The notes under the pieces were generated by a model. That model was not told the DNA's origin and ran no database searches. It saw only the letters and a list, made by a program, of their open reading frames with translations. From assembly GCA_029887795.1 (NCBI GenBank), contig JARXPE010000004.1, forward strand, positions 1-62,954: a stretch of 62,954 bases of DNA, read 5' to 3'. Below are positions 729 through 37,856 of the stretch, in pieces; the first letter of the stretch is position 1, and each line of letters opens with the position of its first letter. Origin of the DNA: Thermoproteota archaeon. Lineage in GTDB: Archaea > Thermoproteota > Methanomethylicia > Methanomethylicales > Methanomethylicaceae. The position numbers and the translations under genes were made by a program.

Positions 729-1840
729 TTAGGTTATCACGTTAGATAGCCCTAAAGAGTCCGCCATTTGAAGGGCGAGCTTCCACTCCGAATGGCTAAG
801 GCGCCTAGTGATCTCAGGGGCTTCTCTAGCTCTCCAGTGCGGAGTGTATTGATCCATGAGGTTTACGCGCGTGTCTCTACCCAACTCTTTGGCAATGAAC
901 TCCAAGATCTTGGAGAGGCAGCAATCAAGATGATTCGGGAGGACCAGTATGCGTATTATCAGCTCGCCATGCTTTTTTGCCAGTTTCAGGTTTCTGGTGA
1001 GAACATCCCAGTACCTAGGGGCATCAGATATGCGCTCAGCACACCGGTCGTTGCCGTACTTAAAGTCTATTTTATATATATCCGCAACCCCTCTCAGGAG
1101 CTCGGAGGACTCAATAGAGTAGTGACCGTTGGTGTTGAAGAATACTGGCATATTCTCTTTCTCGTGGAGTAGGACTCTAAGCCAGAAGGGTATGTGTGGA
1201 ATAGGGTCTCCGCCGACCCAGTTCTGGTTCCTGCACCCTCTCCTCCTAGCGTCATCTATCAATAGTGCCAACTCTTTCTCCGAGTATAGGTCCCCTCGCT
1301 CTATCTGCTGGCTTATGCCCCAGTTCTGGCAGTGGAGGCACCTGAAATTGCATCCCAAGCTAATTCGGCCGACTTTTGGTCGTATACCGTAAAGCTGGGA
1401 ACGATTTCAGGTTCCTCCCCCATGTGGTCAAAGCAGGAAGACACATACATGTCTTTCCCTACTTTGCAGTATCCGAGTTCACCATGAAGCCTGTCCTTCA
1501 TGCATCTGCGCTCGCATAGGACACAACTTTCCATGATCTTATGCGCAATGACGGACTTTAAGTGAAGGAGAGATGACCTCGGAACGTCCAGATCGGAGTA
1601 GCGGACTTTTCCTTCATCGAGTGACCTCTCTAGTTCAGATTCTTTTTCTAGTGCTTCGCTATGCAGCCGCCAAAGCTCGTCTATTGACAAGTCATCTGAG
1701 AACTCAACGGGAATTACTCTGGAGATCCTGAATTTTGCTATACTTTTGTTCTTAACAATGTTAACGTACCTAGGGAGTGAAGAGAGAACCTTAGGATCCT
1801 CCAGTGCGGAGGCGGCATCTGGTCTCAGGAAGTACCAGAT
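729..1840 (-). CDS. PflX-like radical SAM protein, two exons (1840..1384 and 1363..729), probable AUC start, 363 aa after splicing
   Basis: ORFs 1313..1690 and 729..1358 are two halves of one protein (CVLCERRC...HMGEEPEIVPS / GCNFRCLHCQNWGISQ, WVGGDP, NLMDQYTP). The first frame is open upstream to ATC at 1840 behind SD GGAGGTGA. Removing 1364..1383 joins the frames. Confidence 0.85.
1364..1383 (-). other. 20-nt bulge-helix-bulge intron in a protein-coding gene
   Basis: mRNA: CCCAGCUUUA-CGGU-AU^A-CGAC-CAAAA-GUCG-GCCG-AA^U-UAGCUUGGG; a 4-bp helix flanked by two 3-nt bulges; excision restores the frame. Confidence 0.85.
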
Positions 1841-1860
1841 ATGGTGTCACCTCCTCTCAA

Positions 1861-2868
1861 TCAAATAACAATATTGATTTCTTCACCACAAAATGCGCAT
1901 TTTTTACCTTTCAGGCGGGTATGTATAACATCAAAGCCAAATCGCTCAATCAATATCTTATTGCACCTTGGACAGTAAGTGTTTTCGTACTTGTGACCAG
2001 GGACATTCCCGAGGTACACGTATTTGAGCCCCTCTGATTTTGATATCCTCCAGAGTTCCTCCAGAAACGATATCTGAGGCGGAAGGCTGTTGGTGTAGAT
2101 GTAGCTAGGGAAGAAGCGGAGAATGTGAATCGGAACATCGTCCCCTAAATTGTCGATTATCCACCTAATGAGTTTAAGGAAGGCGTCTTTTGAGTCTCCT
2201 CCCCCTGTAACAATCAGGTTTGTTATCTCTATGAAGATCTTCTTCTCTTTCATCTCTAAGAGGGACTGGTAAATGGGCTCTGTGTTGGGGACCTTGCAGA
2301 AAGATCTATAGAAGTCTGGATCGCCGCTACCCTTGAAGTCCACCGTCGCTGCGTCGAGGTAGCCGTTAATGGTGTCAACAGCCTCGGGGGTCATGTAGCC
2401 ATTGGTCACGAAAGTATTGTAGAGGCCTTCCCTGTGGGCAATTCTCGCAGTGTCATAGGCATACTCGAAGAATATTGTGGGCTCAGTATACGTGTAACTG
2501 ATGGACAGGCATCCGGCTTGTTTTGCCATTGAGACTACTTCCTCAGGCGGCAGATCTTCCCCTTTTATTTCACGGTCTTGGCTTATGCTCCAATTGTCGC
2601 AGAATATGCATTTAAAATTACAACCCACAGTCGCAATCGAAAAGGCAGTGCTGCCTGGGTGGAAGTGGTAGAGTGGCTTCTTCTCGATGGGGTCTACAGC
2701 GTAGGATATCGCCTTACCGTAGACTAAAGAGTGAAGGATGCCCCCCCTGTTCTCTCGGACGCCGCATATGCCTCTCTTGCCTGATTGAATGGTACACCGC
2801 CAGCCACAGAGGTTGCACTTTACTGCAGAATTCAGCTTTTGATAGAGCATGGCTTCCAATACAACCAC
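1861..2868 (-). CDS. amrS: AmmeMemoRadiSam system radical SAM enzyme
   Basis: CNLCGWRC, GICGVREN, DPIEKKPLYHF, GCNFKCIFCDNW, TYTEPTIF, YVYLGNV, CPRC. Confidence 0.92.
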   Translation of the reverse strand: MVVLEAMLYQKLNSAVKCNLCGWRCTIQSGKRGICGVRENRGGILHSLVYGKAISYAVDPIEKKPLYHFHPGSTAFSIATVGCNFKCIFCDNWSISQDREIKGEDLPPEEVVSMAKQAGCLSISYTYTEPTIFFEYAYDTARIAHREGLYNTFVTNGYMTPEAVDTINGYLDAATVDFKGSGDPDFYRSFCKVPNTEPIYQSLLEMKEKKIFIEITNLIVTGGGDSKDAFLKLIRWIIDNLGDDVPIHILRFFPSYIYTNSLPPQISFLEELWRISKSEGLKYVYLGNVPGHKYENTYCPRCNKILIERFGFDVIHTRLKGKKCAFCGEEINIVI

Positions 2869-16956: not shown

Positions 16957-17052
16957 GCGGCCGTAGTCTAGCGTGGTCTAGGACGTCGGCCTTCCATGGA
17001 TAAGATCCGGAGAGCGCCGAGGACCCGGGTTCAAATCCCGGCGGCCGCACCA
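16957..17052 (+). tRNA. tRNA-Gly(TCC) with 18-nt canonical 37/38 BHB intron (16997..17014)
   Basis: GCGGCCG acceptor; TCGGC-CTTC-CA^T-GGATAAGATCC-GGAG-AG^C-GCCGA; T arm GGGTTCAAATCCC; ACCA end. Confidence 0.95.
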
Positions 17053-37549: not shown

Positions 37550-37663
37550 GGCCCGGGGCGGGGATCGAACCCGCGAGCTGGGGCTCTCCGCGGATGGGCT
37601 CCACAGGCCCCCGGGATAACCACTACCCTTCGGGGGTAGCGATTTCGCTACCTTACCCGGGCC
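37550..37663 (-). tRNA. tRNA-His(GTG) with encoded G-1, no encoded CCA, two BHB introns (9/10: 37629..37653; 37/38: 37586..37600)
   Basis: After removing both introns: G-GCCCGGG-TA-GGGT-AGTGGTTA-TCCC-G-GGGGC-CTGTGGA-GCCCC-AGCTC-GCGGG-TTCGATC-CCCGC-CCCGGGC-C. Confidence 0.9.
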
Positions 37664-37856
37664 ACCTAGGCCCTCAGCCCGAATTGGGCAGGATAAGATG
37701 CTCCAACATTATTATTTAACCCTGTCGGCAGAAATATCTTTGATTTTTAACTAAGAATTTTGGGCTTCTTTATCTTCATTTTTGTTAATAAACTGAGATC
37801 TAAGATATCTAAGCTTGAAACTAAAGGCTTTTTAGTTTACCTTTACATATGTAAAG

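Follow-up and report, generated by a model that had tools for sequence, protein, structure and literature searches.

Why does a PflX-like radical SAM gene of an archaeon of the family Methanomethylicaceae lie in two different reading frames? The gene is carried on the minus strand of contig JARXPE010000004.1 (Thermoproteota archaeon, assembly GCA_029887795.1), positions 1 to 62,954 of which were analysed and are called the window throughout, and it is split by an insert of 20 nt at 1364..1383. The N-terminal frame, translated from 1846, encodes a conserved Cys-rich part and then ends at a stop at 1313; the C-terminal remainder, from LGCNFRCLHCQNW onward, is read in a different frame (729..1358). 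A preliminary description, made from the letters of the window alone, had noticed this break and interpreted it as an archaeal bulge-helix-bulge (BHB) intron in an mRNA. From the reading frames, the comparison with relatives and public RNA data, we are highly confident that 1364..1383 is a 20-nt archaeal BHB intron, located within the radical SAM coding sequence and spliced from the mRNA.

The C-terminal part matched the Radical_SAM family (PF04055; E 9.2e-19, 68.7 bits vs a cut-off of 29.5), and the cluster motif CxxxCxxC is present as CNFRCLHC at 1329..1352. None of the NCBIfam models reached its cut-off with the C half of the interrupted gene; with this half, the pyruvate formate-lyase (PFL)-activase models TIGR02493 and TIGR02494 remained below their curated cut-offs (20.3 vs 231.75 bits and 26.2 vs 174.35 bits, respectively), and the name "pyruvate formate-lyase activating enzyme" found on database halves is a label given by some sources. 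Deletion of 1364..1383 joins GUA U to UU AGC, giving ...PSFTVFSLGCNFRCLHCQNW in a stop-to-stop frame of 365 codons. Exon 1 (457 nt, 1384..1840) covers the Cys-rich N-terminus, and its last base is the first of a Phe codon; exon 2 (635 nt including the stop codon, 729..1363) encodes the radical SAM core with its CxxxCxxC motif, the first Cys of which is four codons beyond the splice junction. The preliminary description had stated that the cutting rule of the archaeal tRNA splicing endonuclease (EndA) removes exactly these 20 nt and yields a frame of 363 aa; this holds when translation starts at the ATC at 1838..1840.

On the mRNA, the break reads CCCAGCUUUA-CGGU-AUA-CGAC-CAAAA-GUCG-GCCG-AAU-UAGCUUGGG, and the 4-bp helix, the two 3-nt bulges and the inner hairpin are as first noted. 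The central helix (H) is formed by CGGU, contributed by exon 1 (1386..1389), and GCCG, contributed by the intron (1366..1369). The 5' bulge AUA lies at 1383..1385 and the 3' bulge AAU at 1363..1365, with the predicted cuts after the second base of each, between 1384 and 1383 and between 1364 and 1363, respectively. The excised RNA would thus be A-CGAC-CAAAA-GUCG-GCCG-AA, in which CGAC/CAAAA/GUCG (1370..1382) forms the inner hairpin (h'). An unconstrained fold of 1345..1405 shows the central helix together with the 5' bulge and the inner hairpin, at an energy of -19.8 kcal/mol (z -2.87; 4 of 200 shuffles were as stable). On the outer side, the predicted structure has an A-U pair at the 3' bulge, a 3x4 internal loop and a 7-bp helix with one mismatch. 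The two strands of this relaxed outer helix, visible in the fold and in the count over 25 sequences described below, are 1390..1399 (CCCAGCU, a UU bulge, then A) and 1355..1362 (U, then AGCUUGG), the latter pairing with A1390 and 1393..1399, with 84% of the cells paired. Compared with the strict hBHBh' form, h' has 4-7 bp as counted by eye and covaries, and h consists of one A-U pair, a bulge of 2 nt and a 7-bp helix with imperfect pairing; with no more than this A-U pair directly abutting the 3' bulge, the helix on the exon side is relaxed. The order of the elements (outer helix, 4-bp helix, 3-nt bulge, inner helix, mirrored on the 3' side) is that of archaeal pre-tRNAs. An Rfam scan of the window reported nothing at the radical SAM insert and three tRNAs elsewhere.

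The same break recurs among relatives. We searched 41 related genomes with the C half, 25 from Methanomethylicaceae (including that of the window) and 16 from elsewhere in the class. Of the 25 Methanomethylicaceae genomes, 20 had a best match that was 68-100% identical and whose open frame, of 214-268 codons (147 where the contig ends), stopped just upstream of the match, whereas 14 of the 16 genomes from other families had unbroken frames of 370-405 codons. The DNA of all 20 family loci carries an insert at the identical place, between ACGGTAT and TTAGC, with lengths of 20, 21, 22, 23, 24 or 33 nt, which represent all three classes modulo 3. The insert is absent from the nine loci read in other families and from L020, a distant homologue within Methanomethylicaceae. 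A wider scan of genome records brought in five more species that have the insert, along with four insert-less homologues from Bathyarchaeia, and raised the distinct insert-bearing sequences to 25, from independent assemblies and at least nine genera. In one of these assemblies, from the same genus as the window (L003), the intron is identical to that of the window.

Removal by the BHB rule restores the frame in all 20 loci, with 365-413 codons in the 19 that no contig end truncates. The peptide across the junction reads PSFTVFSLGCN (PSFTVFSSGCN in one locus), and the spliced proteins align without gaps with 14 intron-less homologues, which have PSGTIFFTSCN or PSFTIFTLGCN at this place. Four of the inserts are in frame, and each of them holds stop codons within 3-8 codons. 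Both halves stay open among the orthologues, with identities of 48-89% in the N part and 68-95% in the C part. A maximum-likelihood tree of 32 proteins, built without two rows of fewer than 300 aa, unites the 19 intron-bearing genes in a clade (support 100/100) that adjoins an intron-less Bathyarchaeia gene. Since these genes form a single clade, the intron was probably gained once, at its base. The relatives thus provided both the intron-less alleles and the inserts at the same codon that the preliminary description had suggested looking for.

Structure is conserved within these inserts, in part by covariation. We applied a hand-written structure to the alignment of the 25 insert-bearing sequences and found 91.1% of the paired cells occupied by pairs, vs 6-52% when the partners were slid by 1-3 columns. 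All four pairs of helix H, CGGU/GCCG, are invariant in 25/25 sequences; its 5' strand consists of exon bases that include synonymous codon positions, and neighbouring codons vary at their third positions. In the inner helix, both sides change in three of the five pairs: the pair 25-46 is GC in 13 sequences and AU in 12, and the pair 26-45 is CG in 15, AU in eight, GU in one and UA in one, neither being unpaired in any sequence. The covariation score was reached by none of 500 shuffles, a control that ignores relatedness. The BHB core is present in 24 of the 25 unconstrained folds, and the 5' bulge is unpaired in the same number of minimum-energy folds. On the exon side, the A-U next to the 3' bulge is the only invariant pair of the outer helix, and it is followed by the 2-nt bulge and the 7-bp helix.

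Public RNA data were available for an orthologue, L047:800-2400 of Ca. Methanosuratincola petrocarbonis LWZ-6, which has a complete genome. Three RNA-Seq runs of one study, X1, X2 and X3, contain 96-99% of the sampled words of L047. A contig of run X2 (10,363 nt) matched the locus over 1,601 nt with no other difference than 23 letters missing at 1473. The missing stretch, L047 1473..1495, reads ACGGG...GCCGAA between ACGGTAT and TTAGCC; it coincides exactly with the intron that the BHB rule predicts, and these flanks leave no room for shifting the deletion. As the insert is present in the complete genome and the contig does not differ from it in any other way, the simplest reading is that run X2 assembled spliced mRNA. 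The 5' cut site, placed in the window by the BHB rule, agrees with this contig, and the transcript of the window itself would be spliced in the same way as that of its orthologue. A raw-read run, X16, contained no reads at the L047 locus and was not counted as a test.

We propose that the pre-mRNA folds such that the exon bases CGGU pair with the intron bases GCCG, flanked by two opposed 3-nt bulges, and that the inner hairpin stabilises this arrangement. EndA would then cut after the second base of each bulge and RtcB would join the exons, producing an mRNA for a 363-aa enzyme in which the Cys-rich N part is contiguous with the radical SAM core. Genes for these putative enzymes are present in the genome of the window. 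It has two genes of the EndA family (PF01974) and also encodes RtcB. The 185-aa EndA product matched the catalytic chain of Aeropyrum pernix (3p1z_B) with E 3e-47 and that of Pyrobaculum aerophilum with 2.6e-37. Its divergent 177-aa paralogue showed weak matches to catalytic chains and structural partners and, as judged by eye, appears to be without the catalytic histidine context of the 185-aa protein; the pair fits a heteromeric enzyme. According to the part of a review that was consulted, relaxed BHBs are cut efficiently only by the (alpha-beta)2 and epsilon2 types of endonuclease. The genome also contains six tRNA introns with strict BHBs (18-54 nt), four of them at non-canonical positions, and the size and layout of the radical SAM intron fall within their range. 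The 3' bulge starts with A in all six, as in the radical SAM intron, which extends to the whole genome a similarity first pointed out for the tRNA introns of the window. We found no evidence for a function of the intron itself.

Several observations weigh against the interpretation of 1364..1383 as a spliced intron or limit what can be drawn from them. Although the intron side of the motif is canonical, its exon side is relaxed, and two positions of the 7-bp outer helix are mismatched in 19/25 and 13/25 sequences; here the preliminary description, which had included an outer helix in the architecture, needed correction, because only an A-U pair closes the 3' bulge and the remainder is imperfect and not well conserved. 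BHB-like folds are also frequent. We scanned both strands of the genome (1.25 Mb) for a 4-bp helix between two 3-nt bulges, with one or more outer pairs, an inner helix of 4 bp or longer and an insert of 13-60 nt, and obtained 17,678 loose motifs, ten of them at least as good as the radical SAM one. Loose motifs joining two open frames numbered 355, or 177 with a stricter minimum frame length; these were mostly situated at ordinary gene boundaries, and the radical SAM intron ranked 11th of the 177. With such numbers the scan does not discriminate, and an argument from the motif by itself was dropped. Because relaxed BHBs are common by chance, the motif alone is not significant; what matters is that it coincides with a frame break and is conserved, and the case therefore rests on the comparison and the RNA rather than on the fold. 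The RNA belongs to an orthologue, with 68% identity to the window gene over the part encoded by exon 2, and the contigs carry neither proportions nor strand. Moreover, the contigs of runs X1 and X3 retain the insert, so that the predicted spliced junction was recovered, for the orthologue, in one of three RNA-run contigs; the other two may derive from unspliced RNA or from library DNA. Finally, the start codon used for the 363-aa product is a putative non-canonical AUC, as discussed below.

Could the two frames be functional as they stand? One alternative is a split gene, in which unspliced mRNA is the template for two independent products, an N part of 175 aa and a radical SAM core of 209 aa, that assemble as subunits. 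The C half in the window begins with TTG, which is usable as a start, and retains CxxxCxxC; gene callers yield such halves, and of the three RNA-run contigs, one is without the insert and two have it. Nevertheless, in four of the 20 loci the C frame offers no ATG, GTG or TTG ahead of the Cys motif, the position of the start varies elsewhere, and the tails of the unspliced N parts are unconserved and span 2-27 residues. Separate subunits would also leave unexplained the invariant exon bases at synonymous sites, the covarying hairpin and the X2 contig without the insert, and we consider this arrangement very unlikely. Translational recoding, in which the ribosome frameshifts or hops across the insert on unspliced mRNA, is favoured by the two frames in the window and the stable hairpin at the break. 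It is contradicted by the lengths of the inserts: no single frameshift or read-through rule serves all species, because the lengths cover all classes modulo 3 and the in-frame inserts hold stops. Matching take-off and landing codons were not visible on inspection of the window break and the related loci, and the insert is physically missing from the X2 contig, which together render recoding highly improbable. As for a decaying pseudogene, or an assembly artefact of 20 nt, a frame break is typical of the former and annotation pipelines call only the halves. The identical break in 25 distinct sequences from at least nine genera, with both halves conserved, speaks against both, as does, for an artefact, the identical intron in the independent assembly L003, and we give these explanations hardly any credence.

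A further possibility, raised in the preliminary description as gating of enzyme expression, accepts the intron and adds a role for it: conditional splicing would set the amount of active enzyme. One RNA run had the spliced form and two the unspliced form, and the intron is retained across the whole family, both of which would be compatible with regulation. The contigs, however, cannot give proportions, the unspliced forms possibly represent library DNA, and retention is equally expected of a neutral intron that can be lost only by precise deletion. We therefore regard a regulatory role as speculative and rather unlikely, while the preferred reading, a BHB intron spliced from the radical SAM mRNA, accounts for the conserved inserts, the covariation and the orthologue contig lacking 23 nt, in agreement with the initial proposal.

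The intron also appears to have affected the annotation of the family. The 25 best database clusters (64-94% identity) are all 177-226 aa long, and most of those whose identity does not exceed 60% have 354-365 aa; no cluster at 64% identity or above, among lengths of 114-366 aa searched, has the spliced length. The expectation of the preliminary description that pipelines would miscall the gene is thus borne out by clusters of half length among the close relatives and mostly full-length ones among distant intron-less homologues.

Is the radical SAM gene the only mRNA of this kind in the class? The gene for aIF5B, an IF-2 type GTPase, contains a 27-nt BHB insert in the genome of the window, on a different contig (G000:C4 32878..32904, minus strand; approximately 2079..2105 of L091), which is among the ten best motifs of the genome scan and at the top of a tighter list of 75 compact candidates. 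The insert is in frame and includes two TAG codons. Exon 1 would comprise 38 codons with the P-loop (…GHVDVGKT…AREVGAM), and the rest begins with TQHIGAS… and continues for 555 further codons. We found 30 aIF5B loci in the 41 genomes, one of them cut by a contig end; among the 29 readable loci, 22 have an insert of 22-33 nt and seven have none, and the insert is found in four families of the class. All 22 inserts form the canonical hBHBh' structure, with an outer helix of 5-6 bp, a central helix of GCCA/UGGC or GCCA/UGGU, and covarying inner helices of 5-12 bp that are quite different in sequence, and in-frame stops are present in every one. The conservation pattern points to a canonical BHB intron in aIF5B. 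Because aIF5B appears to carry such an intron too, mRNA substrates would not be a one-off in the class, which suggests that the tRNA machinery of this class splices mRNAs habitually rather than in one exceptional gene. The cbf5 gene was uninterrupted in all five Methanomethylicaceae genomes in which it was searched (L122-L126: G004, G010, G012, G017 and G018), and in the genome of the window it is cut by a contig end.

A broader, speculative proposal is that splicing of mRNAs by the tRNA machinery constitutes a regulatory layer in Methanomethylicia, with the radical SAM and aIF5B mRNAs, and perhaps others, being spliced conditionally. We think this improbable at present. If true, the output of an enzyme and of a universal translation initiation factor would be tied to the activities of EndA and RtcB, as an archaeal counterpart of HAC1/XBP1 splicing.

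Where does translation of the radical SAM mRNA begin? A Shine-Dalgarno-like GGAGGTGA at 1847..1854 (minus strand) ends 6 nt ahead of the putative start codon, the ATC at 1838..1840. The same GGAGGTGA is located upstream in L001 and L003-L007, and L002 has GGGGGTGA instead. The ATC aligns with ATG, GTG or TTG starts of other genera (L008-L012, L017-L019 and L021), L001-L007 and L014 have ATC or ATT at the aligned position and a stop codon two codons before it, and the intron-less homologue L051 begins with MWNLLRPD at the corresponding place. From these alignments, translation probably begins at AUC. In this reading a GGAGGUGA motif precedes the AUC by 6 nt, one relative has AUU in its place, and a canonical start codon is first met about 50 codons inside the conserved radical SAM protein.

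Directly upstream, on the same strand, 1861..2868 holds a second, unbroken radical SAM gene, whose product passes the model of the AmmeMemoRadiSam system enzyme (292 bits vs a cut-off of 220). A neighbour of this type is also found beside the orthologues, where it gave weak second matches in the search of the relatives' genomes.

Among the tRNA genes of the window, the one at 16957..17052 (plus strand) has an 18-nt intron at 16997..17014, U-GGAU-AAG-AUCC-GGAG-AG, in which GGAG pairs with CUUC of the anticodon loop; cuts after the second base of each bulge leave a normal anticodon loop. ARAGORN calls this tRNA Glu(UUC), and without the 18-nt BHB intron it reads Gly(UCC). The gene for tRNA-His(GUG) at 37571..37671 (minus strand), missed by Rfam and by plain ARAGORN, has a 25-nt intron at 37629..37653 near its 5' end and probably a second one of about 15 nt beside the anticodon, at approximately 37586..37600. 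Thus, of the three tRNA introns originally listed for the window, those of 18 and 25 nt were confirmed, and that of 15 nt is a candidate from a noisy relaxed scan; ARAGORN with introns allowed and a very relaxed scan of the window were too noisy beyond the tRNAs named here. Elsewhere in the genome, tRNA-Lys(CUU) has a 19-nt intron in its anticodon stem (G000:C36 11657..11675, minus strand), placed after raw base 31 by the ARAGORN count and at about 30/31 by eye, which is present in some genera of the family and absent in others (L067-L081). It has helix H CGGU/GCCG and the ends ACG...CGGCCGA in common with the mRNA intron, and it may be a relative or the source of it, on a pattern that was recognised post hoc and for which about five chance matches are expected in unconstrained sequence.

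With the intron, the radical SAM gene would be the second gene family, after cbf5, with a BHB intron in its coding sequence, in a lineage that includes recently named methanogens; aIF5B, a universal translation factor revealed by the same scan, would be the third. The tRNA-splicing machinery would then act on mRNAs more widely than thought, and annotation in these lineages would systematically split or truncate real genes. More cases should emerge from screens in which frame breaks are considered jointly with BHB folds and comparative data. Since both forms of the orthologue, with and without the insert, are represented in public RNA data, the locus also lends itself to studies of whether the splicing of archaeal mRNAs is under regulation.

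How does this intron compare with known ones? It is a BHB intron of a known kind, rare in archaeal mRNAs, in a new host gene and a new lineage. Our literature search found no report of an intron in a radical SAM or aIF5B gene, with subscription papers and the descriptions of cultured Methanosuratincola largely outside its coverage. As stated in the consulted part of PMC2738675, cbf5 introns are 16-44 bp long, mostly have unconventional BHBs with cleavage between bulge residues two and three, and have been linked to a hetero-oligomeric endonuclease, and introns in other archaeal protein genes were predicted and unconfirmed at that time. As far as those accounts of the crenarchaeal cbf5 intron go (Watanabe et al. 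2002; Yokobori et al. 2009, PMC2738675), the radical SAM intron resembles it in being short, in residing in coding sequence within a BHB or relaxed BHB, in its predicted cuts between the second and third bulge residues and in the misannotation of the gene as split or frameshifted. The endonucleases of both hosts may be likened as hetero-oligomeric, which for the present genome means two paralogous genes. The differences are that cbf5 encodes a pseudouridine synthase in Crenarchaeota, whereas the present host gene is a PflX-like radical SAM gene of Methanomethylicaceae, and that the 5' half of its motif is canonical with only the exon-side helix relaxed, in contrast to the mostly unconventional BHBs described for cbf5 in that source. 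The excerpted text of a 2020 study lists cbf5 and the 5' untranslated region (UTR) of HVO_1309 as the only known mRNA substrates as of that year (PMC7714728). Like HVO_1309 of Haloferax volcanii (Schwarz et al. 2020, PMC7714728), the radical SAM mRNA would be a substrate of the tRNA splicing endonuclease beyond cbf5; according to the same excerpt, the HVO_1309 intron is in the 5' UTR, leaves the frame uninterrupted and has been shown to be cleaved in vivo and in vitro, whereas the radical SAM intron is in coding sequence and its cleavage is predicted.

With archaeal tRNA introns, at canonical and non-canonical positions alike, the radical SAM intron shares architecture, size and the h-H-B-h' order. 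Both kinds of position are reportedly covered in the work of Marck and Grosjean from 2003. Unlike these introns, it is hosted by a messenger that has no tRNA body to aid recognition, and its removal must keep the frame. A further parallel is provided by the HAC1/XBP1 mRNAs, in which IRE1 cuts at two stem-loops and tRNA ligase or RtcB joins the exons in a proven, stress-regulated switch. The similarity lies in a short intron being excised from a coding mRNA independently of the spliceosome, in the resulting change of frame and in the joining by tRNA-type ligation, which is predicted here; the radical SAM intron differs in that the presumed nuclease is EndA rather than IRE1 and the recognised structure a BHB rather than two stem-loops.

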